Origin: Halomonas sp.
Lineage (GTDB): Bacteria; Pseudomonadota; Gammaproteobacteria; Pseudomonadales; Halomonadaceae
Assembly (NCBI RefSeq): GCF_034520545.1
Contig: NZ_JAXHNN010000009.1
Span: 298,236-322,235 of the forward strand
Direction of reading: 5' to 3'
Length of the DNA: 24,000 bases
Shown: in pieces, positions 1 through 24,000 of the stretch
Layout of the letters: the number at the start of each line of letters is the position of its first letter
Numbering within the stretch: the first letter of the stretch is position 1
Program-made: the position numbers and the translations under genes
The notes under the pieces: generated by a model
Database searches by the model: none
The model's input: the letters and a program-made list of their open reading frames with translations, nothing else
What the model was told of the DNA's origin: nothing

Positions 1-45
1 GGCAGCCGAAGAGATCGCGGAAGAGCTCTCTTGATGGGGGGAATC

Positions 46-308
46 ATGTGCGGCCGTTTCGCCCTCTACAGTGACTTCCCCAGCCTGGCAGCATCCCTCA
101 AGCTGCCGCTTGCCGAGGGTGAGCTGACGCCTCGCTATAACGTTGCGCCGGGCACCTGGATCAGTGCGGTGCGCCGGAACGATGAGAGCGGCGAGCTGTG
201 CCTAGACGCGCTATGGTGAGGCTACCGAACCCTGGGTCGACGACAAGGCGCCGCAGCCCACTACCCATGAGGCGCTATGACGGGGAACCCCTGTGGTTTC
301 CCGGTATC
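46..308 (+). pseudogene. SRAP/YedK-family (SOS response-associated peptidase) gene remnant, frame-broken and truncated by an IS insertion
   Basis: From the ATG at 46 the frame reads MCGRFALYSDF...LTPRYNVAPGT. This has the Cys2 nucleophile position and the RYNVAPG block typical of SRAP proteins, but it stops at 219. A different frame at 276-308 reads YDGEPLWFPGI, resembling the SRAP DGxPxxFAGLW block, and runs straight into the IS inverted repeat at 308. Confidence 0.7.
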
Positions 309-3432: not shown

Positions 3433-4881
3433 ATGAACGAAAATTATGATTTTGAAAAACTGAAGATAAAGAGGCTTTGCTACCAGTGTATCGGTGAACA
3501 GTACTTGAAAGACGAGGTGCAACAAAAGGGCCAAAGAGGACGTTGCTCCTACTGCAGTCGTAGCGTTCGGTCCTACACAATTGGGGCCATTGCAGAGCGC
3601 GTTGAGACGGCATTCGAACAGCATTTCAGGCGGACCTCAGACCAACCCACGGCCTGGCAGCAGTCTCTGTTGTCGGATCGGGAGTCAAGCTATGACTGGG
3701 AGCGCGATGGTGAGCCAGTCATTTGGGCGATCGCAAATGCCGCAGACATTCCGGAGCCTGCGGCAGAGGATATCCAGGTTATATTGGACGACCAGTACGC
3801 CGATTTCGATGCCGCAGCGATGGGCGAAGAAAGTGAATTCTGTTCGGAGTCCTACTACGAGGAAAAGGGATCCAGTGATGATGTGTGGCAAGAGGAGTGG
3901 CGCGATTTTGAACGTTCATTGAAGACTGAGGCGCGCTTCTTCAGTCGGACCGCAGCAGGGCATCTGGCGTCGGTCTTTGGCGGAATCGATGGAATGTATG
4001 CGACCGACGGCAGACCGCTGGTTATTGATGCGGGAGCTCAGACAAATCTGTCCACTATCTACAGAGCGCGCGTCTTTCAGTCTGAAAAAATGTTGCAAGA
4101 GGCGATTTGCCGCCCGGACCTTCATATTGGCCCCCCACCAGCAGTTCTAGCGACCGCTGGGCGAATGAATGCACGAGGTATATCAGTCTTCTATGGCGCA
4201 ACAGATCCAGGGGTGGCGATTGCCGAGGTCAGGCCGCCGGTGGGAAGCCAAGTGGCGGTCGCGCGCTTTGAGATCATCCGTCCCATTCGACTGCTGGATC
4301 TCACTGCCCTTAGAGCAGTGGCTGAGGTCGGCAGTATCTTTGATCCCGGGTGGGCCGCTCGACTTGAGCGCGCGACATTCCTGCGCTCCCTAAGCCAGCG
4401 TATTGCTAGGCCCGTCATGCCGGACGATGAGGCCTTGGAGTATCTCCCTACACAGGCAATCGCTGATTTTTTGGCAACAGAAAACGATCCTGTGCTCGAT
4501 GGCATTATTTTTCCATCTGTCCAGGCGACAGGTGACTTTTTGAACGTTGTCCTATTCCACAAGGCAGCGCGAGTTGAAGCGATGGATATCCCAAAGGGAG
4601 CTGATATCGAGGCGAGTACAGGCCATATGAGTGAGGACGGCTGGGAAGTGGATTACTTAGTAAGCGAACGTCTTTCGCCCAACAGTTCATCAAAGGAAGA
4701 ACACGAAGGGGACCAATTGCCCGGTCTAGACGAATTCGTCGTCAGTGCATGGCAAGCTGGCAATATTGATCTCCGAGATGTGACGTTGCGGAACGACCTT
4801 GAGAGCGTAAAAGTGCACATCGTGCGTTGGGTTCAATACCAGTGTAATGAGTACGACGTAAAGCGATATCGGTGGAATTAA
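3433..4881 (+). CDS. Large stand-alone RES-domain protein with N-terminal four-Cys domain (HEPN/RES-NTD1-like)
   Basis: The ORF is 482 aa. The N-terminus has CYQC(16-19)...CSYC(38-41). The C-terminal half carries the RES triad in its usual contexts: GRMNARGISVFYGA (R244), VAIAEVRP (E265) and DGIIFPSVQ...NVVLF (S362). An acidic linker lies between the two halves. I see no credible Xre/antitoxin ORF next to it. Confidence 0.8.
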   Translation: MNENYDFEKLKIKRLCYQCIGEQYLKDEVQQKGQRGRCSYCSRSVRSYTIGAIAERVETAFEQHFRRTSDQPTAWQQSLLSDRESSYDWERDGEPVIWAIANAADIPEPAAEDIQVILDDQYADFDAAAMGEESEFCSESYYEEKGSSDDVWQEEWRDFERSLKTEARFFSRTAAGHLASVFGGIDGMYATDGRPLVIDAGAQTNLSTIYRARVFQSEKMLQEAICRPDLHIGPPPAVLATAGRMNARGISVFYGATDPGVAIAEVRPPVGSQVAVARFEIIRPIRLLDLTALRAVAEVGSIFDPGWAARLERATFLRSLSQRIARPVMPDDEALEYLPTQAIADFLATENDPVLDGIIFPSVQATGDFLNVVLFHKAARVEAMDIPKGADIEASTGHMSEDGWEVDYLVSERLSPNSSSKEEHEGDQLPGLDEFVVSAWQAGNIDLRDVTLRNDLESVKVHIVRWVQYQCNEYDVKRYRWN

Positions 4882-4939
4882 AGCGATGTCGATTTAATAA
4901 TCCACTGAATTTCATAAAAAAAACAGCACCTGAGGTGTC

Positions 4940-5322
4940 CAGGGCTCCAGAGTATTCCCCCATGAACACCTGTGCCGGTGTCCGGTAGCCGAGCCGCTTT
5001 CGGGGGCGGTCATTCAGCTTTTTCACCATCCTTCGCACCTCGGCATCGGTGACCTGCCGGGAACGTCCCCATAGCCTCACCTGGCGCCCCGGCGCCGAGA
5101 GCAAGCTTGATTGGTTGGTTGGTTGGCTTGGCGCCATTGGCTATGGCGTTGTCGTACTGCCACTTCACCAAGAGTGGTCATGGAAACCTTTGTCTCACTG
5201 ACAGTGGCCCTCAATCGAAGTGCCTCGCGCACCAGCTCCCCGAAGGACGCTCCCGGGTGGGTGTTCGGATTATAAATGGCACGGACATAGTGGATCTTTT
5301 TGTAGGCCGGACGACGAGCCAT
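4940..5322 (-). pseudogene. IS30-family transposase remnant (internally deleted, frameshifted)
   Basis: One minus frame reads VTDAEVRRMVKKLNDRPRKRLGYRTPAQVF, the conserved IS30-family C-terminus (LNxRPRKxLGxxTPxxVF). Another frame starting at the ATG at 5322 reads MARRPAYKK...GASFGELVREALRLRATVSE, which resembles the IS30 N-terminal HTH (GxSxxEIARxLxRSxSTISRE). The catalytic core between them is missing. The frame switch coincides with a (TTGG)4 tract. Confidence 0.5.
5110..5125. repeat. (TTGG)4 tetranucleotide microsatellite inside the IS30 remnant
   Basis: TTGGTTGGTTGGTTGG is read directly from the sequence. On the minus strand it encodes PTNQPTNQ, at the point where two IS30-like reading frames overlap. 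Confidence 0.9.
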
Positions 5323-5357
5323 GAGCTTTTCCTGAGTCGAACGTAGGCATTCTTTGT

Positions 5358-7042
5358 CCTGAATCCGTGAAGCTCGTGCCGACACTTTCCCTATCACCGC
5401 CAGCAAGTATTTTTTGATCACCTGATTCGAAAATTGCGGGGTGATTGAGCGCGATGTCACCGAAAATGCCCGTTCCGAACGGTACAGATAGCCCGGCTTT
5501 TCCGGCTTTTTCACCCACCAGGCACGGCCGGTCTGGCGATTGCGCGTCGCTCGGAAGTGCCTGTGGATAAAGTGTCTTCGGACGGCGGTCAACATGGCGA
5601 GCCTCGCGGGTAACGTAGGCGGCTTCGCAGGGTGTTCAACACCGTCATGCGCCCGATGTCCTGCCCGAAGTCGAGGATGATTTGCCGCGCCTTGTGAATC
5701 ACCAGAGCCGCTCGATGCACCAATTCCTGCAACACAGTCCGTATCCTTCGTCGCTTAGCCGGGTGGCGGACCGGGCTCAGCTCACCGGTCATGCCCAGCT
5801 GCCCCATCAGGCGCAAGATGTTGTAGGCCAGTTGGGCGAGATGCAGGATCAGGTCGTTGGTGGCGAACTTGCCCGAGGGCAGCCGCTCCAGGTCGAGATC
5901 GGTCTTGATCTCGCTGTGGAACTGCTCGTGGGTGGCATGCGCCTGGTAGCGCTTGATCACCGCCTCCGGCGCCTCGTCCAGGCTGGTCCACCAGCCTTCC
6001 AGCTCATAGTCCGGTTCGAGTAGCAGTTGACCATCGCGATCGGCGGTGCGCTCCACCAGACGCATCACGCGCTTGACGACGTATTCGACCTTGTTGTCGT
6101 CGCGGATCGAGACGGTCTGGGTCCACAGCGCCTGGCGCTTGCCAGGGCGCAGCTCTTGCCAATAGTCAGCCGCTACCGCTAGCCAGGTGTCCTGATCGGC
6201 CTTGGCCGAGTCGCGTGGGTTCCATTTGATGAGGTAATCCAGCCGGCGGCCCGCATCGGCAAACGCCTGGCGGTGCCGTTCGATAAGGGCCAGGTGCGCC
6301 TGGCTGTCGAAGCCACTGTCCTCGCGCAGCAGGATCGGTTGCTCGGTCAGGTCCTGGGCGCGGGGTAGCACCCGCTCCAGGAAGGCGTTGCTCTCCTTCA
6401 TGGTGTGCTGCTTGCCGGGGCGCAGCTCCAGGCCCAGGCACCAGCCTTCGTTGCCCAGATAAGCGGCGATCGGGGTGTAGCCATCGACCTTCTGGTAGGT
6501 CCGCGAGACGCCTTCCTTCTTCGAGTTGCTGTTGTCCATGACGAAGGTGTCGATATCCAAGCAGACATGGCCCTTCTCGGCGCTGATGGGCACCTCCGCC
6601 AGCGACAGCAGCGTGGTGGACCAGGTGGCGGTGCGCGCCTGCAGGTCTTGGGCGGCGAGCTTCTCCATCCGCTGACGCAGCGTCGCGGTGCTCGGCACCT
6701 TCTGTAGGGTCAGCAGTTGCTGGAAGGGCTTGTCACGGCGAAAGTTCTCAATAGCGTCATAGTCGCTCATGCCCAAACACAGCAGGCCCAGGTAGCTCTT
6801 GATCACGTCGCTGGTACGCATGCCCAGCGTGGTGGGGAAGCGTCCGTCGATGCTGTCGACGCCGGCGATCTCGAGGCACTGCCCGATAATCGACAGCCCG
6901 GCATGGCTGGTGAGGGTGCGGCGACTGGCGCGGAACTTGACGTTGGGCATGGAAATGTCCGGGTGAACGGCGACAATCGATATATTGCCATGCGCATCAG
7001 GGGGTTAGAAGCGATTTGAGGTGCCGATTTCACGGATTCAGG
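5358..7042 (-). mobile_element. IS1380-family insertion sequence, complete (1685 bp) with a 5-bp target duplication
   Basis: Perfect 14-bp terminal inverted repeats CCTGAATCCGTGAA (5358-5371) and TTCACGGATTCAGG (7029-7042), with further partial complementarity inward. They are flanked by direct TTTGT at 5353-5357 and 7043-7047. A single transposase ORF lies inside. Confidence 0.85.
5589..6950 (-). CDS. IS1380-family DDE transposase
   Basis: The ORF is 453 aa. It reads MPNVKFRASRRTLTSHAGLSIIGQCLE..., LREDSGFDS, and YQAHATHEQFHSEIKTDLDLERLPSGKFATNDLILHLAQLAYNIL. The last block is characteristic of IS1380-type transposases as I remember them. Confidence 0.75.
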   Translation of the reverse strand: MPNVKFRASRRTLTSHAGLSIIGQCLEIAGVDSIDGRFPTTLGMRTSDVIKSYLGLLCLGMSDYDAIENFRRDKPFQQLLTLQKVPSTATLRQRMEKLAAQDLQARTATWSTTLLSLAEVPISAEKGHVCLDIDTFVMDNSNSKKEGVSRTYQKVDGYTPIAAYLGNEGWCLGLELRPGKQHTMKESNAFLERVLPRAQDLTEQPILLREDSGFDSQAHLALIERHRQAFADAGRRLDYLIKWNPRDSAKADQDTWLAVAADYWQELRPGKRQALWTQTVSIRDDNKVEYVVKRVMRLVERTADRDGQLLLEPDYELEGWWTSLDEAPEAVIKRYQAHATHEQFHSEIKTDLDLERLPSGKFATNDLILHLAQLAYNILRLMGQLGMTGELSPVRHPAKRRRIRTVLQELVHRAALVIHKARQIILDFGQDIGRMTVLNTLRSRLRYPRGSPC

Positions 7043-7110
7043 TTTGTATACGACTAAATAGCCCAGCGTCTAGAAAGAGCACATCATCTAAATCCATTGC
7101 GGGTCTAACT

Positions 7111-7557
7111 CGCCGGTCTAGCCTTGCAGCCCTGCGCCTGTACGGGCGCCCCGAGATCTTCAACAGCGACCAGGGTGCTCAGTTCACGGCCGAGGCGTTT
7201 ACGGGTGTGCTGAAGCACGAGGGCATCACGATCAGCATGGATGGCCGAGGCCGTGCCTTCGACAACATCTTCGTCGAGCGCCTGTGGCGAACGGTGAAGT
7301 ACGAGGACGTCTACCTCAAGGGCTATGCGACTCCGGTGGAACTGACGCTCGGGTTGACGGAATACTTCGCGTTCTACAATGACGAGCGCCCTCACCAAGC
7401 GCTGGCGAACGAGACACCGGACACAGTCTACCGGGCTCGGCAGGGCGGAGGCGCACTAATCGTGGACAAGTACGGACCGGGGGCGATACCGACCGGTGAC
7501 TCAGTGGGACCAAGACAGCGCTGTTCAGCTGCGAATGAGGCTCAGGTCATTGCTTAA
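7111..7557 (+). pseudogene. IS3-family transposase OrfB (rve integrase core) 3' fragment
   Basis: The fragment reads RPEIFNSDQGAQFTAEAFTGVLKHEGITISMDGRGRAFDNIFVERLWRTVKYEDVYL...FYNDERPHQALANETPDTVY, the C-terminal half of an IS3-family integrase domain. Everything upstream, including OrfA and the first catalytic Asp, is absent and replaced by IS30/IS1380 sequence. A possible element end (...TCCATTTCA) lies near 7596. Confidence 0.8.
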
Positions 7558-7730
7558 ACTCATGCACTTTCTGTCTTGACGGTGGGGTCCATTTCAATTC
7601 TCGAGGTCGAAAGATAGCAGCGTAAACTATTGATTAACCTGAAAACGCCTTTTAAAAATTGTCACTCCAAACGTGATGATGCAGGCCGAAGCCGATGACA
7701 TGGATGGCAGTCTGCTATGCGAGTGAGGGG

Positions 7731-9005
7731 TCAGCGTATCTTAGGCAACTCGTCCCAGCGGGTCGTCCAGCGCGGTGTCCGGTTGGCACAGCGCAGATGC
7801 CAGGCAGCTCCAGGCGAGGGACGGCCGAAGGTCACGGTGCCACGTCCCATCCGGCCATTGAGGCTATCGAGGGTCGCCATAAGGTGGTCATTACGCTCTC
7901 GGTCGGCTCGGCTCTCCGTGGTATCCAGCAGCGAGAGCTGTTGCCGGTTGGCATCCACCAGGTCGACCAGCATCACTCCCGCCTTCATGAAGCGATAGCC
8001 TGGTCGGTAGATGGTTTCGAGGGCCTGACTGGCGGCATGCAGGATGTCTCGACTGTCATCGGTGGGCTGCGGCAGTTCCACGATCGCGCTGGGTGAATAT
8101 TGCGGCAGGTCAGGCCGGTGTCGGTTGGTTTTGAGGAATACGTAGACGGCACGCGCCAGGCTGTCCTGGGCACGCAGCTTCTCGGCACTGCGCTGGGCAT
8201 ACTGACGGATCGCCTGATGGATCTCCTGCCGTTTGTCGGTCAGTCGGCCGAAGGAGCGCGAGGTCATGATCCGCTGACGCGCCTGCCCCGGATCGTTCAT
8301 CTCGATGCAGGGAATGCCCTTCAGCTCGAGGCAAGTACGTTCCAGGGTCACCGAGAACCGCTCGCGAATCTGCTTGGGGTCCGCCTGGGCCAGGTCCCAT
8401 GCCGACTGGATGTCCAGCAGCTCAAGGCGCTCCACCAGCCGACGTCCCACACCCCAGACGTCACCCAACGAAATCTGCTTCAGCAACGCCTCGCACTCGG
8501 CGCTGCCGGTTCTCAGCATGCAGACGCCGCCAAAAGCGGGCATCTTCTTGGCCGCCCGGTTGGCCAGCTTGGCCAGCGTACGGGTCGGGGCAATGCCCAC
8601 GCTGACCGGGATATGCGTGAAGCGCCGTACCTTGGTGAACAGTTCCTGCGCATGGCCATGCATCTGATCGACGGTGAAGCTATCGAAACGCACGAACATC
8701 TCGTCGATCGAGTAAGGCTCGACCCCGGCAGAGAACTCCTCCAGCACCTGCTGCACCCGTGAGGACATGTCGCCGTAGAGCTCGTAGTTGGACGACAGCA
8801 GTTCGATCCGCTGACGCCGCTGCAGTGGACGCAGCTCGAAGGCCGGGGTGCCCATCTCCACGCCCAAGGCCTTCAGCTCGTTGGAACGCGCGATCACGCA
8901 GCCATCGTTATTGGACATGACCCCCACGGGCACGCCCTCCAGCCGAGGCTGGAAGGCGCGCTCGCAGCTGACATAGAAGTTGTTGCAGTCGATAAGCCCG
9001 ATCAT
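7731..9005 (-). CDS. umuC: DNA polymerase V catalytic subunit UmuC (Y-family translesion polymerase)
   Basis: The ORF is 424 aa. It begins MIGLIDCNNFYVSCERAFQP..., contains SNNDGCVIARSNE and SIDEMF, and has the UmuC-type C-terminal region. It sits immediately downstream of a umuD-like gene. Confidence 0.95.
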   Translation of the reverse strand: MIGLIDCNNFYVSCERAFQPRLEGVPVGVMSNNDGCVIARSNELKALGVEMGTPAFELRPLQRRQRIELLSSNYELYGDMSSRVQQVLEEFSAGVEPYSIDEMFVRFDSFTVDQMHGHAQELFTKVRRFTHIPVSVGIAPTRTLAKLANRAAKKMPAFGGVCMLRTGSAECEALLKQISLGDVWGVGRRLVERLELLDIQSAWDLAQADPKQIRERFSVTLERTCLELKGIPCIEMNDPGQARQRIMTSRSFGRLTDKRQEIHQAIRQYAQRSAEKLRAQDSLARAVYVFLKTNRHRPDLPQYSPSAIVELPQPTDDSRDILHAASQALETIYRPGYRFMKAGVMLVDLVDANRQQLSLLDTTESRADRERNDHLMATLDSLNGRMGRGTVTFGRPSPGAAWHLRCANRTPRWTTRWDELPKIR

Positions 9006-9010
9006 GACCC

Positions 9011-9049
9011 GCTATTCCCTGCTATTCCCTGCTATTCCCCGCTATACCG
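9011..9049. repeat. 10-bp tandem repeat (GCTATTCCCT x3 plus a degenerate fourth) filling the umuD-umuC intergenic gap
   Basis: The four units are GCTATTCCCT (9011-9020), GCTATTCCCT (9021-9030), GCTATTCCCC (9031-9040) and GCTATACCG (9041-9049). In the gene sense this is AGGGAATAGC repeated between the umuD stop (9042-9044) and the umuC ATG (9005). Confidence 0.9.
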
Positions 9050-9482
9050 AATACTCATGCACCACCGCCTTCACCACGCCCCAGGCCTGGCACTCCAGGT
9101 CTGCGGCGGGGATGGGGGGATAGGTAGGATTACCCGAGGTCAGGTAGGGCCGGTTGCCCAACAGTTCATAGCGTTTAACCACCAGTTCCCCTTCCACCGA
9201 GGCCACCAGAATGTGTCCCGGTCGAGGCTCGATGGCACTGTCGACCACCAGCAGATCGCCTGCGCCGATACCCAGCGCCTCCATGCTGTCACCGGTCACC
9301 GTCATTAAGAAGGTCGATGCCGGGCGCTTCACCAGACGTTCGTTGAGATCCAGGGTGCGCCCCTCGTAGTCCTGGGCGGGGCTGGGAAAGCCCGACAGCC
9401 CCGCTCGTGTCAGTGGCAAGGGAAAGGGAAGCGGCAGTGACGGCGGCTCCGGGTGAGCCAGGATCAAGGGGTCATGCGGCAT
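9042..9482 (-). CDS. umuD: UmuD-like S24 self-cleaving peptidase (polymerase V accessory subunit)
   Basis: The ORF is 146 aa. GFPSPAQDY...LDLNERL aligns with E. coli UmuD CGFPSPAADY...IDLNQLL. The Ser nucleophile context VTGDSMEALGI and the Lys context GELVVKRYEL are both present. AGGAG lies 6 nt upstream of the ATG. Confidence 0.9.
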   Translation of the reverse strand: MPHDPLILAHPEPPSLPLPFPLPLTRAGLSGFPSPAQDYEGRTLDLNERLVKRPASTFLMTVTGDSMEALGIGAGDLLVVDSAIEPRPGHILVASVEGELVVKRYELLGNRPYLTSGNPTYPPIPAADLECQAWGVVKAVVHEYSV

Positions 9483-9498
9483 GGTGGGCTCCTATCGA

Positions 9499-9518
9499 TA
9501 CCTGATATATATACAGTA
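9499..9518. promoter_or_regulatory. LexA (SOS) box-like palindrome upstream of umuD
   Basis: The site is TACCTGATATATATACAGTA. The right half is identical to the E. coli-type consensus TACTGTATATATATACAGTA. The left half is offset by one base, giving CTG-N9-CAG instead of CTG-N10-CAG. It sits 17 nt upstream of the umuD start. Confidence 0.55.
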
Positions 9519-9769
9519 ACAGACAAGGCACCATGCCTGCCAAGCCCACAACGCCACGAAGGTAGCAAGCATCCTCAGGATGATGCTGCTAACCTGACTG
9601 AGGTACTGAGATAGCAAGGGAGTGCGAAATAGCGGCCAATTATTATCAATCGATGACCCGGATACAGGTACCGGTTGTATATCAGCTCACGACACAAAGC
9701 TGACATGCCGGAAATGGCAGCATGCACGTCCAGTCGTGCTAGCCAATTTTCTTATGGGGGTAAAATAGT

Positions 9770-11554
9770 TTGTGGTCAGATACAGAATCCGAAAAGGACT
9801 ACCTTAATTTTGGGGAAGTCTCACAGCTCGCAGTCGACATTCTTACAGCGGATGGCATGTTACCGGTCTCCGTTGGCGTTTTCGGTAACTGGGGTGCTGG
9901 GAAATCCTCCCTTTTGAAACTGATTGAGCAGGAGCTAGATCAGGATGAGAAGGACTGGATTGTTATCAAGTTCGATGCCTGGCTGTACCAGGGGTATGAC
10001 GATGCTCGGGCAGCCCTCCTGGAGGTTATCGCAACGGCACTGACCGAAGCCGCGGATGGAAACGCGAGTCTGACCACGAAAACCAAGAAACTCCTTGCCC
10101 GAGTCGATGGATTCAGGGCCATGGGGTTGCTGGCTGAGGGCGCAGCCCTGTTCGCCGGCATTCCCACCGGTGGCTTTTTCGCCAGAAGTGTTGGTGCCCT
10201 GGGTAATGCCGCTGACGGTATCGAGAATCAGGAAGAGTACGAAAATCTAGGCAATACGGTCAAGGAGGCGAAAGAGCAGGCTGGTGGCCTGTTGAAGCCC
10301 GAGACGAACAAAAGCCCGCCTCAGCAGATTGATGCTTTCCGTAAGGAATACGGGGAAATCCTGGAAGAACTTGGTGTGCCGCTAGTGGTGGTTATCGACA
10401 ACCTTGATCGCTGCCTCCCGACCAACGCCATCCATACGCTTGAAGCCATTCGGCTGTTCCTGTTCTTGACGAATACAGCCTTTATCATAGCGGCCGATGA
10501 AGAAATGATCCGTTCCTCGGTGGCCGATTACTTTAAAGGGGCATCAGACCGGCACCAGATAGACTACCTGGATAAACTGATTCAGGTCCCCATCCGAGTG
10601 CCCAAGGCTGGCGTGCGGGAAATCCGCTCCTACCTGTTCATGTTGTATGCCATCGACCACCGCCTGCCCGAAAAAATACTCGAAAAGCTCCGGGACGGTT
10701 TGGAGAAGGCCTTGCAGCAGTCTTGGAAAGACGATCCAATCACTCGTCAGGATGCCTTGGTGCTGACTGGAGAGTCGGAGGATAGCACCCTAGCCAGGGC
10801 GTTTTCCCGGGCAGACCGCATTGCGCCGGTGCTGGCCAACTCCCCTATTATCCACGGCAACCCGCGGATCGTGAAACGGTTGTTAAATGTCGTTAAAATG
10901 CGCTCACAGATTGCACGGCGCCGCTCAATGCCTTTGGACGAGGCTATCATCACCAAGCTGGTGATCTTTGAGCGATGCGTTGGTGTGAAGGCAACAGCTG
11001 ACTTCTACCGTTTGGTGGACGCCGAACAGGGAACGCCCACGCTGCTCAAGCAGCTGGAGGAAGGGGATGGCCAGATACCCGCTGACGCCCCAAAGACATG
11101 GACGGATAACCCGACCACTATATCCTTCATTAGCGAGTGGGCTCAACTCGAACCTCGTCTTAGTGGGGTCGACCTAAGGGCCGCGATTTACCTGTCTCGG
11201 GAAACCATGCCGATTGGCGCCTATGTGGTGGGGCTGTCCCCTGTAGGGCGGGAAATTCTGGATGTGCTGGTGGATACAAAGAATACCAGCTCGCCGACAG
11301 CGGAAAAGCTTTTGAACACCCTTCCTCTGGAAGAGCAAATACCAGTAATGGAAGGAGTTATAAGCCACCTGAGACAGGCTTCCGACTGGTCTCGAAAGCC
11401 CAAAGGATTTGCAGGAGCGTGCCTGCTGGCCCGCCATTCGGCCGACGCGGCCAAGATCCTAGTTCGGTATCTGCAAGAGCTGGAGCTGGGCGATAAGCCT
11501 CCAGCGTGGATGACTACACTTTTAAAAGAAGAGCAATGGCATAAGGATGCTTAA
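9770..11554 (+). CDS. qatA: KAP-family P-loop NTPase (QatA-like)
   Basis: The ORF is 594 aa and starts at a TTG, the only start available after the in-frame stop at 9761. It has Walker A GNWGAGKSS (9884-9910) and FDAWLYQGYDD. A hydrophobic insert (MGLLAEGAALFAGIPTGGFFARSVGAL) lies between Walker A and the Walker B-like VVVIDNLDRCLP, which is the KAP-family hallmark. Confidence 0.85.
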   Translation: MWSDTESEKDYLNFGEVSQLAVDILTADGMLPVSVGVFGNWGAGKSSLLKLIEQELDQDEKDWIVIKFDAWLYQGYDDARAALLEVIATALTEAADGNASLTTKTKKLLARVDGFRAMGLLAEGAALFAGIPTGGFFARSVGALGNAADGIENQEEYENLGNTVKEAKEQAGGLLKPETNKSPPQQIDAFRKEYGEILEELGVPLVVVIDNLDRCLPTNAIHTLEAIRLFLFLTNTAFIIAADEEMIRSSVADYFKGASDRHQIDYLDKLIQVPIRVPKAGVREIRSYLFMLYAIDHRLPEKILEKLRDGLEKALQQSWKDDPITRQDALVLTGESEDSTLARAFSRADRIAPVLANSPIIHGNPRIVKRLLNVVKMRSQIARRRSMPLDEAIITKLVIFERCVGVKATADFYRLVDAEQGTPTLLKQLEEGDGQIPADAPKTWTDNPTTISFISEWAQLEPRLSGVDLRAAIYLSRETMPIGAYVVGLSPVGREILDVLVDTKNTSSPTAEKLLNTLPLEEQIPVMEGVISHLRQASDWSRKPKGFAGACLLARHSADAAKILVRYLQELELGDKPPAWMTTLLKEEQWHKDA

Positions 11555-12306
11555 TGGGGACTTCGCAATCGAGTACCGGCCCGGGGAGCGGTTCACCACT
11601 GATACCGCCATGGGCGGATGACCAACCACAACAACCACTGCCACAACCACAGACTAGTAGGTTCGCTCCATTTCGAAAATCTTTAGGTAGTGCTGTATCT
11701 AGCGGCAACCGAGATGATTTTAGGAAAGCTATTGGCCACTACGCTCGCAAGGCCAGCGGTGGAGGTGGGAGTGCGGCCAGGAGGATGGGGAGTGTTACCC
11801 AGGCCGGAGCCGGACTTTTTGGCACTCTGATTGGAGCTACTGCAGGCCCAGGAGAGGCCAGCGTCGATCTTGGCAGTTTGGCTGGCCTCCCATGCGAGCA
11901 GGCAATTTCCGCTATTACCCAGGCTCTGACTACAGATGACGGGGATTCGGATAAGATCCGAGCAGCCATGAATCATGCTCTGGTTGAAGCGCTGGATGGC
12001 GTGGAGACCTTTGATCCTCAATGCATCACCGACGATGTGATTGTTGATACCATGATTGGGTATTTGTCTGAAAGTATCTTCTTGCAGATGATAATGGACT
12101 CAGGCAAGGCCTGGAACAAAGCGGATACCCCCGGCCAAGCGATGCGAGCGGAAACGGAACTCCGTGAACTGGTTAAGGTTGTAGTCGATAAATTTATGGC
12201 CCCCAAACTTTCCGGCAATGTGAGAGCCGTTAACCGACAGCAAATGGCTCAAATTGAACGTCAATCCATTATCGATGCATGGAAGGAATGGGAGGCTTAC
12301 CAGTGA
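11554..12306 (+). CDS. qatB: Hypothetical protein in the QatB position (MG start, P/Q- and G-rich N-terminal third, helical C-terminal part)
   Basis: The ORF is 250 aa. Its ATG overlaps the upstream stop (TAATG at 11552-11556). The sequence reads MGTSQSSTGPGSGSPLIPPWADDQPQQPLPQPQ...ASGGGGSAARRMG. I recognise no catalytic motif. The assignment rests on position and operon context only. Confidence 0.65.
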   Translation: MGTSQSSTGPGSGSPLIPPWADDQPQQPLPQPQTSRFAPFRKSLGSAVSSGNRDDFRKAIGHYARKASGGGGSAARRMGSVTQAGAGLFGTLIGATAGPGEASVDLGSLAGLPCEQAISAITQALTTDDGDSDKIRAAMNHALVEALDGVETFDPQCITDDVIVDTMIGYLSESIFLQMIMDSGKAWNKADTPGQAMRAETELRELVKVVVDKFMAPKLSGNVRAVNRQQMAQIERQSIIDAWKEWEAYQ

Positions 12307-13607
12307 CACAATTAATATTCCATCACAACCATCAACATCTCCCACCTGCCAGTGACGACGTATTGCCCGTTCAACTTTATGGATTAATCGGGAAGGGACG
12401 AGGTGACATATCAGTAATCGGGAATCCGGTCATCGACAAGATAAAGCGCCTGGGGGTGCAAATCCCTAGCCAGGCTATGGATTTCCTGACGATTGCACTT
12501 GCGGTAACTGCCGCAGATACCTTTGTTCGCCGGGCGGATGCTGAAGATGGCTGGACCCGTCGACTTTCCCTCCATCTACCACTCCATGAACCAGCTCGAT
12601 GGCTGCCACTGACAAAGGATCTGGAGCGAGCACTGCACTTCCTGAGTGGAGATATCTGGAGCTTCAATTTCCAAAAAGGTGGATACCCACCTCCTGAACC
12701 TTATTGCTGGCCTGATCGACACAGACGTATTTCACTCAAAGGATTAGATTGTGTATGTCTGTTCTCCGGTGGCATGGATTCGGCGATTGGAGCGATTGAT
12801 CTACTGGCGCAAGGGCGTGCCCCATTGTTGGTGAGCCACTGCTATAAAGGTGATAAGAAACATCAGGACCAAGTTGCTAAAGTGCTCGAGGGGCATTATT
12901 CCCGTTTTGAGATCAACGCAGATCCACACCTGTATACAAGAAAAACAGACATCACAATGCGGACGAGAAGTCTTAATTTCCTTGCGTTTGCAGCTGTCGG
13001 CGCCTGTGCTGTACGCGCTGTATCCCAACAAGAGAATATCGACCTATTCGTGCCCGAGAATGGTTTTATCTCGTTGAATGCCCCATTGACTCCCAGACGC
13101 ACCGGTACGCTGAGTACGCGAACCACTCATCCACACTTTATCAAAAGTATCCAAGGGATTCTTGATGCGGCGGATATCCCTTGCAGAATCATTAATCCTT
13201 ACCAGTTTAAAACCAAAGGGCAGATGGCTGCTGAGTGCAAAAACAGACAGTTGCTAGAGGATGTTGTAGATAGTACGGTGTCCTGCAGCCATTGGAAACG
13301 AAAAAAAATGCAGTGTGGTATATGCGTTCCCTGCGTCATTCGCAGAGCTGCGCTTCATGCAGGAAGAATTAGTGATACCAGCTCATATAGGTTTGAAACC
13401 GTAGCTGATGTGTTAAATAAGACTGACCGTAGGGATGACATTCAGGCTTTGCGCATTGCGGTTACACAGAAAGCAACGCGGAACCCAGGGCCATGGATAG
13501 CAGATAGCGGCCCACTTCCCGTTGCGACATTCGAAGATTTTCAGAAAGTCTTTTTGGATGGCCTTTACGAGATTGAGGTTTTCCTGAAAGCCGAGGCCGC
13601 TTTGTGA
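12303..13607 (+). CDS. qatC: QueC-like PP-loop ATPase with N-terminal extension (QatC-like)
   Basis: It has the PP-loop LFSGGMDS (SGGMDS at 12765-12782), the block VPENGFISLN, and a C-terminal Cys cluster CSHWKRKKMQCGICVPCVIRRAAL like the QueC zinc site. About 150 residues precede the PP-loop. The preferred start is the GTG at 12303, with GGGAGG 7 nt upstream and a GTGA overlap with the qatB stop. Alternative ATGs lie at 12279 and 12288. Confidence 0.85.
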   Translation: MTQLIFHHNHQHLPPASDDVLPVQLYGLIGKGRGDISVIGNPVIDKIKRLGVQIPSQAMDFLTIALAVTAADTFVRRADAEDGWTRRLSLHLPLHEPARWLPLTKDLERALHFLSGDIWSFNFQKGGYPPPEPYCWPDRHRRISLKGLDCVCLFSGGMDSAIGAIDLLAQGRAPLLVSHCYKGDKKHQDQVAKVLEGHYSRFEINADPHLYTRKTDITMRTRSLNFLAFAAVGACAVRAVSQQENIDLFVPENGFISLNAPLTPRRTGTLSTRTTHPHFIKSIQGILDAADIPCRIINPYQFKTKGQMAAECKNRQLLEDVVDSTVSCSHWKRKKMQCGICVPCVIRRAALHAGRISDTSSYRFETVADVLNKTDRRDDIQALRIAVTQKATRNPGPWIADSGPLPVATFEDFQKVFLDGLYEIEVFLKAEAAL

Positions 13608-14341
13608 ACATCGATATGCATTGTCACCTCGATCTGTATCCGGAGCCATTCAAAGTGGCCGAGGAATGCAAAAAACGGGGTACATACGTACTGTCAGTAA
13701 CTACTACGCCCAAAGCCTGGGATGGGACCTGCAGGCTTGCTAAGGGCTGCTCACGCATTCGTACAGCGTTGGGCTTGCATCCACAAATCGCGCACCAAAG
13801 ATCACATGAGCTGGAGTTATTCGATGCGCTACTCTCAGATGCGAAGTATGTGGGAGAGATAGGGCTCGATGGGGGAAAAGGCTTTAAGGACCATTGGCAA
13901 GTGCAGCTGAAGGTATTCCGACACATACTTAATAGTGTGAATAGTGCCGGTGGTAGAGTCATGACGATACACAGTCGATCAAGCGCAGCGTCCGTGTTGG
14001 ATTTCCTCCCGGGTGTTGATGGTGTTCCGATACTTCATTGGTTTACGGGAACGCCGAGTCAACTGAGAAAAGCTATAGACATGGGGTGTTGGTTTTCCAT
14101 TAACCCATCTATGCTAGAAACGAAAAAGGGCTATAACCTTGTTGCAATGATGCCAAAAGAGCGAATTTTGACAGAAACTGATGGCCCATTTACAACCCTT
14201 TCGGGAAACACTCTATTTCCGTGGGACGCGAGCTTAGTGATTCTGAAGGTGGCATCCATCTGGAAGTGTGACATAAGCGAAGCAGAAAAAATAATAGATA
14301 ACAACTTTAAGCGGCTTTTGGTGAAGGACCATTTTTGCTAA
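13604..14341 (+). CDS. qatD: TatD-family metal-dependent hydrolase/nuclease (QatD-like)
   Basis: The ORF is 245 aa. It reads NIDMHCHLD (HxH), GEIGLDG, MTIHSRS, ILHWFTG and LTETDGPF, the TatD/amidohydrolase metal-ligand series. The GTG start overlaps the qatC stop (GTGA at 13604-13607). An alternative ATG lies at 13616. Confidence 0.9.
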   Translation: MNIDMHCHLDLYPEPFKVAEECKKRGTYVLSVTTTPKAWDGTCRLAKGCSRIRTALGLHPQIAHQRSHELELFDALLSDAKYVGEIGLDGGKGFKDHWQVQLKVFRHILNSVNSAGGRVMTIHSRSSAASVLDFLPGVDGVPILHWFTGTPSQLRKAIDMGCWFSINPSMLETKKGYNLVAMMPKERILTETDGPFTTLSGNTLFPWDASLVILKVASIWKCDISEAEKIIDNNFKRLLVKDHFC

Positions 14342-14445
14342 AAAGGCCGTGAACGCGGACGCATATTTCGTTCGATTTTCTCAAAAATATACGCCAGTTG
14401 GGGGTGGTGTTTACGCATGCAGTATCGGATAAGCAGGGAGACTTG

Positions 14446-15043: not shown

Positions 15044-15418
15044 TTAGTCTTCCGTCCTCACCAACCAGCCTTCCACTGTCTCGGAACCGTACTCATCCTT
15101 CCAGGCTTTCAAGGTCTTCTGATTGCCGCCCCGCGTTTCCACCACCTCTCCAGTATTCGGGTTCTTGTAGATCTTCAGCTTGCGCTTGGCGCGACCTGAG
15201 CCTGTGCTGCCGCTGGAGCCTTTACTGGTGCTCTGTGTTGGATCCAATAGCTTGATGACGTCGGCGGCGGACTTGTCGAATTCGCGCATCAGGGTCTCGA
15301 GGTGGTTCTTGAAGTCCAACTCGGACTTGAGGCGCTCATCGTTCTCCATCTTCTTCAGCTCTTCCTGAAGCTGCTTGAGCTGTTCTTCTTTCTGCAGGTA
15401 GGTATTGAGAAATGACAC
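15044..15418 (-). CDS. MvaT/MvaU-type H-NS-family nucleoid-associated protein (xenogeneic silencer)
   Basis: The ORF is 124 aa from the GTG at 15418, with AGGAG 8 nt upstream. (M)SFLNTYLQKEEQLKQLQEELKKMENDERLKSELDFKNHLETLMREF...RAKRKLKIYKNPNTGEVVETRGGNQKTLKAWKDEYG closely parallels Pseudomonas MvaT as I remember it (...YKNPHNGEVIETKGGNHKTLKEWK...). Confidence 0.85.
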   Translation of the reverse strand: MSFLNTYLQKEEQLKQLQEELKKMENDERLKSELDFKNHLETLMREFDKSAADVIKLLDPTQSTSKGSSGSTGSGRAKRKLKIYKNPNTGEVVETRGGNQKTLKAWKDEYGSETVEGWLVRTED

Positions 15419-15719
15419 GGGCTGACTCCTCTGATTACGGTCGGCATCGATTATGGAGGCAACTCTCTCACAGTTCAATCAGTAGGGAGTGACAGTGTTG
15501 TAGATACGCCTCCGCAGTCACCTGCAGTCTATTCTTAGCGGATACGTCTAGCCTGTTGAGTCAGTTGTTTCTGCGCCCACCATGGAAGTCTTTACCACCG
15601 GCAAACAGTCGCTCATCTAGCGTGCGACAGTCGATGTCTTGCAAAAAAAGAGAGTGCGAAAGATACCGGTGCCGCCCCGAGGGCAGCACCGGAATTTATG
15701 CCGTGATGCTGGATAAGGG

Positions 15720-19653: not shown

Positions 19654-20019
19654 GAGGATCTCCTGAATGAAGTGGAAAGGACGAAACCCTATGGCGGGTC
19701 TTCCCTCAAGTAATACGGGGCTGACGTTTTTTTGAATCGAATCGTAGGGATTATCGGCTCCAGGAGTGTTTTCTATTGGCAATCGTTTATCCGCCAGCCC
19801 AGTATACAAAAAATAACAAAAACACTAAGGAATCCAGAATAGTCCGACAAAGTCCACAGTATTCCAGCTATCACAGGCAGCAGGATTTTGGCCAGTAGAT
19901 GCGCTTGCGAGCGCTGCCTGACCTGCCTAATATCAGCTCCGTAGCGCACGCCAAGAAGGGCAAAGCGCTGCGACGGAAACAAGGACTACCACTCTCCAAA
20001 AATTCCAGGAGGAATGAAG

Positions 20020-20415
20020 ATGGATTACGATTTACCTGAAGATGCGCTGCTTGAGCGCAAGCGGCTTGCTGAAGAAGCCAATGCTGAAAAAGCCAATGCC
20101 GATGAATTCGATGTCGATGCCGATGAATTCGATGTCGATGCCGATGAATTCGATGCCGAAGAGTTCGATGTTGGAGAAATGCAAATGGATGACGATCTTA
20201 GTGACGACGCACGTCTTGAGCGCGAGCAACTGGACGAAGAAGTTGGTTCTGAAGAGCAGGACATACAGCATGAAGAAGATTTAGAGGAAAACAGATCGCG
20301 GCGAGCGAAAGAGTATTGCGCCATATATGGTGTTATGCCGGAAAATGATCCTGATCTAGAAGGAGAAGATACAGAGCTAGACGAGGAAGAAGAGGAGGAT
20401 CTGGTCGATACATAA
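20020..20415 (+). CDS. Hyper-acidic repeat protein (possible DNA mimic / anti-restriction factor)
   Basis: The ORF is 131 aa from the ATG at 20020, with AGGAGG ending 7 nt upstream. The track start at 20014 is too close to the SD. By my count 57 residues are D or E and about 11 are K or R. It contains DADEFDV DADEFDV DADEFDA EEFDV repeats and an internal duplication (LPEDALLERKRLAEEA / LSDDARLEREQLDEEV). Confidence 0.7.
   Translation: MDYDLPEDALLERKRLAEEANAEKANADEFDVDADEFDVDADEFDAEEFDVGEMQMDDDLSDDARLEREQLDEEVGSEEQDIQHEEDLEENRSRRAKEYCAIYGVMPENDPDLEGEDTELDEEEEEDLVDT
20098..20172 (+). repeat. 21-bp tandem repeat (GCCGATGAATTCGATGTCGAT x ~3.5) inside the acidic-protein gene
   Basis: Units lie at 20098-20118, 20119-20139 and 20140-20160 (variant), with a partial unit to about 20172. 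Each full unit contains an EcoRI site (GAATTC) and encodes ADEFDVD. Confidence 0.9.
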
Positions 20416-20429
20416 ACCGAACCTAAAGC

Positions 20430-21227
20430 CTGAGGAATCCCCACGAATATTGGCTATCCGTTGCATAAGGCCTGCTCCCTGACCTCCTCCTGAATGCATA
20501 CTTGAAGCGTTTTCCAGGAGGGCCAGGGGGCAGTACTGACACGATGACGCCGCAACCACTCCAGGCCCAGTCGCCACACGGAGAGCACGTTCCGATGCCG
20601 AATACTGTTGCTCTGGTAGCGCTGCTGTTGACCGCTGTCACGGACCTGCAGGCCGGCTATCATCACCGCGACATTGGCCAGCATGGCGATCAGTAGCAGG
20701 ATTTCGATTCGCTTGCCCTGCCGCGACTGATGCATGCCGAAGCCCAGTCCGAATAATGGGCTCTTGACGTCGCGGAAGCCTTCTTCAATCTGCATGCGCT
20801 GCCGGTAGATGGCCACCAACTTGTCTGCCAGCGTCGAGCGTGCCGGCAGATTGCTGACCAACACCCAAGGCTCCTTCTGGCGCCGAGCGATCGCGCGGCT
20901 CCCGCTGTCCTGGGAGACCAGCCCGCGCTTATTGCGATGTTTTCGCCCCTGTGGTGGCCGATGGTAGAGCACCATGTAGGTGGTGAGCGGGTTGCTCTCG
21001 GCGATCTGGACGGCGCCCAGTGCGCGCGATTCCGAGGTCGCTTGCGGAAACAGATCTGCCACGGGCTGCCACTCATGCCCCGGTATCTGGCAGCGAGTTG
21101 GACTGCGTACCCGGCCAACGTAGTACCAGCCTCGTGCCTCGACCGCCTGAAACCAGGGATTGCGAAAGCCTGCATCGGTGACCAGGATCGGCGTCGCGTT
21201 GTTGCGGCATTGGGCAGGCAGGTTGTC
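20430..21227 (-). mobile_element. IS10-like (IS4 family) element remnant: one terminal repeat plus the C-terminal two-thirds of the transposase
   Basis: The end sequence CTGAGGAATCCCCACGAATATTGG (from 20430) matches the IS10 termini as I recall them (CTGATGAATCCCCTAATGATTTTGG / CTGAGAGATCCCCTCATAATTTCC). The protein from TPILVTDAGFRNPWFQAVEARGWYYVGRVRS to the end parallels IS10 transposase (IIVSDAGFKVPWYKSVEKLGWYWLSRVRG...) and includes the YREK signature YRQRMQIEEGFRDVK. The N-terminal third, with the first catalytic Asp, is missing. Confidence 0.8.
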
Positions 21228-21659
21228 GGCAACGCTGCTCAGTAACGCCTGAGACATGTCACAGGCCTCCTCGACTACGTTGTCCAAGTTGCCGCTCTGC
21301 ACCGCCAGAAAGGCTCTGAATGACTTAATAGCCTCCTTGCCATGGCCGAGGACGGCGAAGAGCACCGGCTCCTGCTTGCGCTGCATGTCGAGAAACACCG
21401 TGACATAGCGATGACCCCGTTGTGTGGCCGTCTCGTCCACGCCGACGGTGGTCACACTGGAGAGATCCAACTCACCCAACATGTGGCCCACGTAGTGGTG
21501 CACGATGCGCCACAGGCGCTTGTCGAAAATCTCCAACTGCCGGGAGACTACCAGCACCGGCATCTCATTGACCAACGCCATGGCGGCCTGTTCGAACAGC
21601 GGGGTGAAGTCGCGGCGGGCCTCGTCCGGGACGCTACACCTGAGGCGGCGTGGCCGCCT
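21228..21659 (-). pseudogene. ISL3-family transposase internal fragment, read through in frame into the IS10-like fragment
   Basis: The fragment reads RDFTPLFEQAAMALVNEMPVLVVSRQL...VGVDETATQRGHRYVTVFLDMQRK...GHGKEAIKSFRAFL...VEEACDMSQALLSSVADNLPAQ. This follows the ISL3 pattern (GIDEfa.rKGh.Y.Tv..D...; ...v.mDM...Y......~P.A). It lacks the zinc-finger N-terminus and everything after the DM motif. The 375-aa track ORF 20454-21581 is therefore a chimera. Confidence 0.7.
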
Positions 21660-23755: not shown

Positions 23756-24000
23756 CTATCGATCCAGATTTAGATCGTTAGAATCATAGGGTTCATCGGT
23801 GTTGTTACAAAAATGGCGAACCGCTTCGACAATGCTAATGGCAACCAACTGTTGGTGTTCCTCCCCTGCCAAGATCACCTCTTCACTTCGATTGACTATA
23901 ACGCCTGCCTCTAAAAGAACAGCAGGCATAATCGCGCTCTTTAGTACCACCAAATCATCAAAACGGTAAATTCCAAGGTTTGAATTCAAAAGGGGGCGAT
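23756..24000 (-). CDS. N-acetylmuramoyl-L-alanine amidase (Amidase_3 type), 3' end only; the gene continues beyond the window
   Basis: The C-terminal sequence ...LVVLKSAIMPAVLLEAGVIVNRSEEVILAGEEHQQLVAISIVEAVRHF matches the AmiA/B/C-type motif (l.vL.....PavLvE.gfisN..Ee..L......q..iA.ai...i). The reading frame is open to position 24000. Confidence 0.7.
   Translation of the reverse strand, partial: RPLLNSNLGIYRFDDLVVLKSAIMPAVLLEAGVIVNRSEEVILAGEEHQQLVAISIVEAVRHFCNNTDEPYDSNDLNLDR

Follow-up and report, generated by a model that had tools for sequence, protein, structure and literature searches.

QatABCD is a four-gene bacterial anti-phage system that has been catalogued since the survey of Gao et al. 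in 2020 and was dissected structurally in 2025-2026, with crystal structures of the QatBC pair deposited as PDB entries 9zee/9zef and 9vlk/9vll. Here we compare with it a locus on contig NZ_JAXHNN010000009.1 of Halomonas sp. (assembly GCF_034520545.1, positions 298,236 to 322,235 of the forward strand). This whole stretch of 24,000 nucleotides is called the window, and all coordinates are given within it. By its sequence, the locus at 9770-14341 is QatABCD, present as an intact copy in a Halomonas-type genome. As a whole it is best explained, with high confidence, as a QatABCD anti-phage operon that is intact, was acquired horizontally and belongs to a compact sub-clade (594/250/434/245 aa), located in a mobile island of a Halomonadaceae genome that is rich in insertion sequences (IS), with its mechanism transferred from homologs.

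In P. aeruginosa and E. coli, the MGTS motif of QatB and the Pro/Trp segment are essential, as seen with G2D, tail deletions and N-terminal tagging (PMC13279940, PMC13639016); in P. aeruginosa, either G2D or deletion of residues 16-22 abolishes defence (PMC13279940). QatB and QatC of E. coli and P. aeruginosa make a 1:1 complex (PMC13279940, PMC13639016, PMC13376578). Met1 of QatB is removed, and Gly2 sits in the PP-loop active site of QatC beside the alpha-phosphate of ATP (PMC13639016, PMC13376578). The QatC S156A/S161A mutant is dead (PMC13279940, PMC13639016), as are the TTAA and TTYD mutants (PMC13279940), and the zinc-cysteine 4CA mutant is impaired (PMC13639016). [quoted passage not shown] A QatD homolog is a Mg-dependent 3'-5' exonuclease on single-stranded DNA (ssDNA) and a Ca-dependent apurinic/apyrimidinic (AP) endonuclease, inhibited by millimolar NTPs (PMC13434339); QatD nuclease mutants weaken defence, and the QatB tail binds QatD (PMC13639016). 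A QatA homolog binds both single- and double-stranded DNA and is a heptamer or octamer by mass photometry (PMC13279940). An earlier note on this DNA had described as unresolved the trigger, what chemistry the QueC-like enzyme performs and what the TatD nuclease targets. This holds for the trigger; the part on chemistry and nuclease is older than five papers of 2026 and is outdated by the QatBC structures, the placement of Gly2 in the QatC active site, the NDG peptide and the QatD activities.

The search with Qat profiles and Pfam families that the earlier note proposed bears out its assignment to QatABCD. PADLOC Qat profiles match all four proteins, full-length or nearly so, with E-values of 0 to 4e-95, and PADLOC assigns the proteins to Qat only. 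Pfam KAP_NTPase, QueC (as a partial match) and TatD_DNase are all found, and QatC and QatD exceed their NCBIfam equivalog cut-offs. We base the identification on these profile matches together with the residue-level signatures and the conserved synteny. The analysis establishes the identity of the system, its intactness, that every residue tested functionally is kept, and that synteny and coupling are conserved; there is no sign at the residue level that any Qat component is inactivated. The four components, their order and their coupled translation are as in QatABCD of E. coli NCTC9009 and P. aeruginosa. The same holds for the KAP NTPase QatA, the HxH-type QatD, the MGTS start and P..W tail of QatB and, in QatC, for SGGxDS, TxT-HP, the Cys4 zinc site and the N- and C-terminal extensions.

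The second gene, which the earlier note had left as an unknown, is a real open reading frame (ORF) and its identity is QatB. It occupies 11554..12306 on the + strand and encodes 250 aa, with the MGTS N-terminus, a Gly/Pro/Ser-rich tail and a helical domain. PADLOC PDLC02212 matches with 389 bits over 1-249/248, and Pfam PF28083 QatB is precomputed for an identical protein. The protein starts MGTSQSSTGPGSGSPLIPPWADD, and the signature reads MGTSQSS...SPLIPPWADD; the tail extends over ~68 residues and carries the PPWADD motif. Within it, M1, G2, T3, S4, Q5, S6, G9, G11, S14, P15, L16, P18, W20, A21 and D22 are invariant in 15 sub-clade members. By analogy with the homologs, QatB is probably the protein substrate of QatC, modified at Gly2, and may also be the hub that binds QatD.

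QatC is a QueC-family PP-loop enzyme encoded at 12303..13607 on the + strand (alternative ATG at 12279), with 434 aa from the GTG and 442 aa from the ATG; residue numbers follow the 434-aa form. PADLOC PDLC02214 gives 440 bits, and the NCBIfam QatC model 410 bits with a cut-off of 280. Sequence searches of the PDB return 9zee_B (4.6e-63) and 9vlk_A (4.1e-58), and the motifs align to both. The PP-loop SGGMDS (residue 155 of 434), the Cys cluster and an N-terminal extension of ~150 residues are all present, as previously described, and there is a C-terminal extension as well. A Thr-x-Thr element (T272/T274) is followed by HP, and the zinc cysteines C328, C338, C341 and C344 are arranged as C328-x9-C338-G-x-C341-x2-C344. 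Also found are the motifs PENG, RTRSLNF, DIWSFNF, PYQFKTK and D...R...WxR, and D60, the equivalent of the published D63. All QatC cluster-2 motifs of PMC13329287 are represented, with varied spacing in the zinc loop and in D..R..WxR. At the interface-loop residue equivalent to L273 of P. aeruginosa, the Halomonas protein has Thr. A motif search for the canonical QueC signatures YxQxHxxE, VPxRN and YPDC found none of them in QatC.

The nearest mechanistic parallel lies in type IV CBASS (cyclic-oligonucleotide-based anti-phage signalling system), where Cap9, likewise a QueC-family PP-loop enzyme, takes the Met-cleaved Gly2 N-terminus of its partner CdnD into its active site (PMC13279940, PMC13376578). 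The N-terminal motifs of the partners are similar, MGTS in QatB and MGGS in CdnD. The two systems differ in that QatC has Thr/Thr in place of the Tyr/Asp pair that binds 7-carboxy-7-deazaguanine (CDG) and carries large extensions, and in that QatB is unrelated to CD-NTases (PMC13279940, PMC13376578). Nor was a CD-NTase, a Cap10/TGT-like protein or a cyclic-nucleotide effector found in any of the ORFs scanned in the window, and with PADLOC assigning the proteins to Qat alone, type IV CBASS was rejected as an identification.

The fourth gene, qatD (13604..14341, + strand), encodes a type II (HxH) TatD-family metal-dependent nuclease of 245 aa. It matches PADLOC PDLC02215 with 316 bits, the NCBIfam QatD model with 332 bits (cut-off 230) and Pfam TatD_DNase with 155 bits over its full length. 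The TatD metal-ligand series reported earlier is complete, with HCH, GEIGLD, IHSR, HWF and ETDGP. The predicted active-site residues H6, H8, H59, E85, D89, H123, H145, E191 and D193 pair one-to-one with H8/H10/H60/E86/D90/H124/H148/E194/D196 of the A. baumannii protein (9xsn_A, 2.6e-74; residues named in PMC13434339).

The first gene, qatA (9770..11554, + strand), starts with TTG and encodes a KAP-family P-loop NTPase of 594 aa, which matches PADLOC PDLC02210 with 1028 bits over 1-593/593 and Pfam KAP_NTPase with 188 bits. A motif search places Walker A (GNWGAGKS) at residues 39-46, its lysine being K45 as the earlier note had it, and the Walker B-like VVVIDNLDR at 206. The hydrophobic insert that had been described between the two motifs holds up in part. 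The insert (about 100-200) contains one moderately hydrophobic segment, LLAEGAALFAGIPTGGFFA at residues 120-138, whose Kyte-Doolittle 19-residue mean of 1.36 is lower than we would expect of a transmembrane helix. A transmembrane insert was rejected on the grounds of this unconvincing hydropathy maximum and because the QatA homolog of PMC13279940 could be purified and studied in solution, binding DNA and oligomerising there. A stand-alone exclusion protein of the PifA type, also a KAP NTPase, was rejected as well: the PifA profile covers residues 6-287 only and scores 95 versus 1028 bits for QatA, and qatBCD always follows. A protein 100% identical over 95% of the length of QatA (565 aa as annotated) occurs in a Halomonas sp. 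metagenome-assembled genome (MAG).

For QatA, a sequence search of the PDB yields no match. The AlphaFold2 model has a mean predicted local distance difference test score (pLDDT) of 66.7; its least confident part is the insert between Walker A and B, and the C-terminal half (about 390-590) is all-helical with pLDDT of about 80-90. A fold search of the PDB with this model returns heptameric RdrA of the RADAR system as the top matches (E 1.5e-4, template modelling (TM) score about 0.25, 10-12% identity). RdrA forms a heptameric ring, a heptamer or octamer has been reported for QatA, and the match is consistent with QatA being a ring ATPase and goes no further. The two differ in that QatA belongs to Pfam KAP_NTPase and the Halomonas locus has no RdrB adenosine deaminase. 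A homology for the C-terminal domain was sought and rejected, the fold search having given weak whole-chain matches only (RdrA and ORC/Cdc6-type ATPases), none of them domain-specific.

We collected 56 related loci from Gamma- and Alphaproteobacteria, Neisseria, Haemophilus, cyanobacteria, Leptospira, Desulfuromonadales and a Limisphaerales MAG. In 56/56 the genes stand in A-B-C-D order on a single strand, and most of the loci are full length. Disrupted or decayed copies are seen in L029, L031, L047, L057 and L020, and two loci (L032, L039) are cut by contig ends. In L020 the QatA match lacks the first 29 residues; in L031 and L047 QatA is partial or interrupted, and L057, from an uncultured Neisseria MAG, has several truncated genes. 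In L029 (Candidatus Electrothrix laxa) an insertion of ~2 kb separates qatB from qatC (6654-8808 of that locus). The flanking genes differ from locus to locus and include AbiEii, NERD, HipA, TIR, integrases and transporters. Among species-representative genomes, a single-protein scan with QatC gave 77 pattern matches and 0 confirmed loci, and a QatB-alignment scan gave 47 loci, with the nearest QatB relatives (87%) in the Halomonadaceae genera Franzmannia and Vreelandella. An identical cassette is present on a 6.4-kb Logan contig.

Members of the compact sub-clade resemble the Halomonas copy closely. In Shewanella sp. ANA-3 (plasmid NC_008573), Ectopseudomonas mendocina (CP011508) and E. coli the lengths are close to those in Halomonas (594/250/434/about 241 aa), the overlaps are mostly the same and the QatB tail is invariant; identity to the Halomonas proteins is 80-91% for QatA, 79-88% for QatB, 71-80% for QatC and 64-80% for QatD. 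What differs is the insertion site and the neighbours, the Halomonas cassette lying between umuDC and a truncated DUF4145 gene. The sub-clade is modeled separately in PADLOC (PDLC02210, PDLC02212), and a relative of full length, with ~70% DNA identity, occurs in 244 of the 5426 complete E. coli genomes. The Halomonas locus is another orthologue in a family that is already catalogued and has been studied structurally. It departs from the characterised members quantitatively, in its compact proteins and shorter zinc loop, and these differences are common to hundreds of database sequences.

The genes are tightly coupled. The start/stop overlaps given in the earlier note are exact, namely TAATG (11552-11556), GTGA (12303-12306) and GTGA (13604-13607), or 1, 4 and 4 nt. 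Projected onto the 56 related loci, which have all four genes, the junction distances are -1 in 34, -4 in 39 and -4 in 32; since most of the loci show them, the overlaps are not due to chance and tight coupling is a conserved trait of the family. The ribosome-binding site of qatA is GGGGG at -14 to -10 from the TTG. The likelier start of qatC is the GTG at 12303: it has GGGAGG before it at -12 to -7, whereas a Shine-Dalgarno sequence is missing at the ATG at 12279; QatC is called with 434 aa in most relatives, and the PADLOC alignment begins at residue 9 of the 442-aa ORF.

A terminator-like hairpin with a T-rich tail, found by a consensus scan at 14356..14384 (+), lies 15 nt past the qatD stop and is the probable end of the operon. 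Terminator-like sites in the region are no more numerous than in shuffles, and it is the position alone that favours this hairpin. On the other side, the intergenic region of 287 bp at 9483..9769, shared with the divergent umuD, is expected to hold the qat promoter. Comparison of the upstream regions of six loci revealed no conserved promoter or regulatory DNA, the sequences being not alignable beyond ~20 nt before the qatA start. Likeness to other Qat loci stops after qatD, and the downstream genes are different in each. With flanks that differ in every locus, the four genes make up the whole unit, and by these alignments the mobile unit is essentially the four coding sequences alone.

Several observations weigh against the reading of a functional QatABCD operon whose mechanism can be carried over from its homologs. 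QatA (392.7 vs 600 bits) and QatB (92.2 vs 100 bits) fall under the curated NCBIfam equivalog cut-offs. The crystallised E. coli and P. aeruginosa pairs are longer, with 282-287 aa for QatB and 465-466 aa for QatC as deposited, versus 250 and 434 aa here, and the Halomonas QatB core is only weakly similar by sequence to the crystallised QatB (9vll_A, 2e-13; 9zee_A, 5e-6). The zinc loop of QatC is C-x9-C in place of the signature C-x19-C, and its D(x)4R(x)7WxR motif is short by one residue. The match of QatA to RdrA is weak, both in TM score and in the confidence of the model behind it. In the literature we found no experimental work on the compact sub-clade or on the Halomonas copy. Even for the homologs, QatC catalysis has never been reconstituted in vitro and CDG is not turned over (PMC13279940, PMC13639016, PMC13376578). 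Finally, a scan of 9483-9769 with a simple E. coli-type consensus, which may miss Halomonas promoters, gave no sigma-70-like promoter, and a gene for an MvaT-type xenogeneic silencer lies ~700 nt downstream of the AT-rich cassette, so that one cannot count on qat being expressed in its native host.

The mechanism that goes with a QatABCD operon is read across from the homologs at every biochemical step. The four genes would be translated as one coupled unit. QatB would lose Met1 and pair 1:1 with QatC, its flexible tail placing Gly2 in the PP-loop active site. QatC would use ATP to adenylate a carboxylate substrate, CDG or a related molecule, and, by analogy with Cap9-CdnD of type IV CBASS, transfer it to the amine of QatB Gly2. 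Modified QatB, as part of a QatBC core, would then block the phage. The QatB tail may also tether QatD, a putative two-metal 3'-5' ssDNA exonuclease and AP endonuclease that would be held in check by cellular NTP levels, and QatA, as a predicted ring-forming, DNA-binding KAP NTPase, may widen the range of phages covered. The step catalyzed by QatC is probable and not proven, given the lack of reconstitution in vitro, the failure to turn over CDG and the low level of the NDG peptide.

This last point leaves some room for a variation on the same theme. The compact sub-clade, with its C-x9 zinc loop of canonical length, a 250-aa QatB whose MGTSQSS-GPGGGSPLxPPWADD tail is invariant and a QatA below the cut-off of the NCBIfam QatA model, might conjugate something other than CDG to QatB Gly2, a tentative suggestion that we consider rather unlikely. 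Three groups saw no ATP turnover that depended on CDG, and QatC has Thr/Thr at the place of the CDG-binding Tyr/Asp pair (PMC13279940, PMC13639016, PMC13376578); the Thr-x-Thr pocket and the repeated failure of CDG turnover make a different conjugate possible across the whole family. If a conjugate other than CDG were used, infection could be signalled by the first substrate itself. The compact QatBC pair could serve as an alternative for reconstituting the QatC reaction, which a smaller, better-behaved pair might allow.

The earlier note had proposed that an NTPase sensor/switch controls a QueC-dependent modification and a TatD effector nuclease. Taken as a linear order of events, in which QatA gates modification by QatC and QatD alone, as the effector nuclease, kills phage or cell, we regard this as quite unlikely, as it conflicts with published genetics. 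The 1:1 complex of QatB and QatC alone protects against lambda-vir (PMC13279940, PMC13639016, PMC13376578), so that protection by homologous QatBC without the other two components has already been seen. Deleting QatA or QatD only narrows the phage range and does not cause full susceptibility (PMC13279940), QatA binds none of B, C and D in vitro (PMC13639016, PMC13376578), and the QatD nuclease is autonomous and not inhibited by QatBC (PMC13639016, PMC13434339). What speaks for a single chain of events is that the four genes are translationally coupled and nearly always inherited together, 98% of Qat clusters being full ABCD (PMC13434339), as are all 56 loci here. The original E. coli study, as summarised in PMC13376578, reports that active-site mutations in QatA and QatD reduce defence; the weakening of defence by QatD nuclease mutants (PMC13639016) and the binding of DNA by QatA (PMC13279940) point the same way.

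A further question is whether the operon is active in its present host. The cassette could be an intact-looking but silent passenger, horizontally acquired, silenced by MvaT or promoterless, and contributing nothing; we consider this very unlikely. That the cassette is foreign is itself part of the reading as a QatABCD operon. It is AT-rich compared with its flanks, as the earlier note saw, with a GC content of 0.546 (qatA), 0.531 (qatB), 0.489 (qatC) and 0.473 (qatD) against 0.63 for umuDC and 0.61-0.65 for the flanks. This contrast and the 76% DNA identity of the cassette to a Shewanella conjugative plasmid indicate horizontal acquisition. A silent cassette would fit with this composition, with the nearby MvaT_DBD protein encoded at 15044-15478, and with the decayed surroundings (the truncated DUF4145 gene and fragments of umuC, of rve and of an IS30-like element); the promoter scan and the upstream DNA that is not conserved across loci count on the same side. 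On the other hand, the four ORFs are full length in comparison with more than 50 homologs, have no frameshifts and keep all catalytic residues, the ribosome-binding sites and coupling overlaps are intact, and the promoter scan was limited to the E. coli-type consensus.

The idea that gene 3 is a housekeeping QueC for queuosine or preQ0, or belongs to a system of the Dpd type that modifies DNA with 7-deazaguanine, and that gene 4 encodes a TatD nuclease of general repair, is vanishingly improbable. A QueC match confined to the C-terminal part of the Pfam domain (39.6 bits) and the full-length TatD_DNase match speak for it. Against it, the QatC equivalog is well passed whereas TIGR00364 QueC, with a cut-off of 150.3 bits, gives only 25.6, the canonical catalytic motifs and the CDG-binding Y/D pair are missing, domain scans found no queD, queE, folE, tgt or dpdA domains in the window (for the first four, in any sizeable ORF, as the earlier note had it), and E. 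coli QatC does not complement a queC deletion (PMC13329287), an answer that holds at family level only for whether gene 3 is needed for queuosine. A canonical QueC was accordingly rejected.

Beyond correct annotation the Halomonas locus matters little, as it adds one more orthologue to a family already in PADLOC and NCBIfam. Annotation of the sub-clade does fall short: it is common, yet QatA is left generic and QatB hypothetical, sometimes without the essential MGTS start. In sub-clade loci RefSeq names qatC and qatD only, with QatA given as 'P-loop NTPase fold protein' and QatB as 'hypothetical protein'. In Shewanella sp. ANA-3 (NC_008573, L001 6931-7542) the annotated QatB start is ~47 codons late, giving 203 aa and losing the MGTS N-terminus. 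Late-start QatB annotation errors of this kind are noted in PMC13279940.

The earlier note placed the cassette in a defence island with IS debris, an hsdR stub and a RES toxin gene. Transposases, their fragments and a RES protein are indeed there; the hsdR stub and other defence systems are not supported. Neither Pfam and NCBIfam searches of the ORFs nor tblastn with two type I/III R-subunit probes found an hsdR stub, though a very short or divergent fragment could escape them. A PADLOC scan of ten flanking proteins for other defence systems gave only a 23-bit Sel1/TPR match to PtuA without a qualifying stretch. We prefer the term mobile, IS-rich island over defence island because no neighbour gave a meaningful PADLOC defence match. 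Domain scans place transposases or their fragments at 406-1359 (IS1595), 5589-6950, 7021-7557 and 20454-21581.

Upstream of the cassette, umuD (9042-9482), divergent from qatA, is paired with a complete umuC of 424 aa (7731-9005, - strand). Beyond umuDC lie an rve fragment, a DDE transposase, an IS30-like fragment, the RES protein, a umuC C-terminal fragment, a Sel1-repeat protein and the IS1595 transposase. The umuC-related IMS_C fragment (2575-2946, + strand, 123 aa) is ~5 kb from the complete gene, and the two sequences suggest a duplicated or rearranged umuDC module broken by IS activity. The RES protein (3433-4881, + strand, 482 aa) has a C-terminal RES domain and a weak HEPN_RES_NTD1 match, which at 24.8 bits falls short of the Pfam cut-off of 27.4; neither PADLOC nor NCBIfam gives a match, and an adjoining Xre-type antitoxin is not obvious.

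A perfect 15-bp palindrome, CTGATATATATACAG, lies at 9502-9516 in the intergenic region that umuD shares with qatA, 20 nt upstream of the start codon of umuD and at a distance of 254 nt from that of qatA. It is SOS-box-like with the form CTG-N9-CAG, and the usual spacing of a LexA (SOS) box is N10. From its distances to the two genes, it belongs to umuDC, if to anything. LexA control of qat was rejected, this N9 element near umuD being the only SOS-box-like one.

Two stretches near the upstream transposases may carry further remnants. A frame at about 45-220 (+), beginning MCGRFALYSDFPSLAASLKLPLAEGELTPRYNVAPGT, resembles the N-terminus of SOS-response-associated peptidases (SRAP/YedK), in which Cys2 is catalytic. 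The frame seems to have been truncated by the IS1595 element, whose transposase is at 406-1359. The stop-free segment at 4882-5588 (-), ending VRRMVKKLNDRPRKRLGYRTPAQVFMGEY, is similar to the C-terminus of IS30-family transposases. Its two ORFs have no Pfam, NCBIfam or PADLOC match, and the segment is probably IS debris.

Downstream of qatD follow the truncated DUF4145 gene, the MvaT-type silencer, RadC, a YqaJ-like recombinase, DUF932, a transposase and a YagK/YfjJ protein. The truncated gene (ORF5, 14398/14446-14919, + strand) encodes 157-173 aa, whereas its homologs have ~237 aa and carry PF13643, so that ~80 C-terminal residues are missing; an identical 157-aa copy is present in a Halomonas sp. 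MAG. ORF5 was considered as a fifth Qat gene and rejected, as it is absent from all other Qat loci and has no PADLOC, Pfam or NCBIfam match. The MvaT-type gene (15044-15478, - strand; MvaT_DBD 78 bits) encodes a putative xenogeneic silencer that could silence acquired AT-rich DNA. At about 19900-20440 (+), between DUF932 and glycine-zipper genes on one side and the transposase on the other, there is a highly acidic frame with tandem DEFDVDA-type repeats (NADEFDVDADEFDVDADEFDAEEFDVGEM). At the 3' edge of the window, 23756-23989 (-) holds a fragment that matches the C-terminal part of an AmiA/B/C-like N-acetylmuramoyl-L-alanine amidase (E 2e-7) and may mark the return to the core chromosome.

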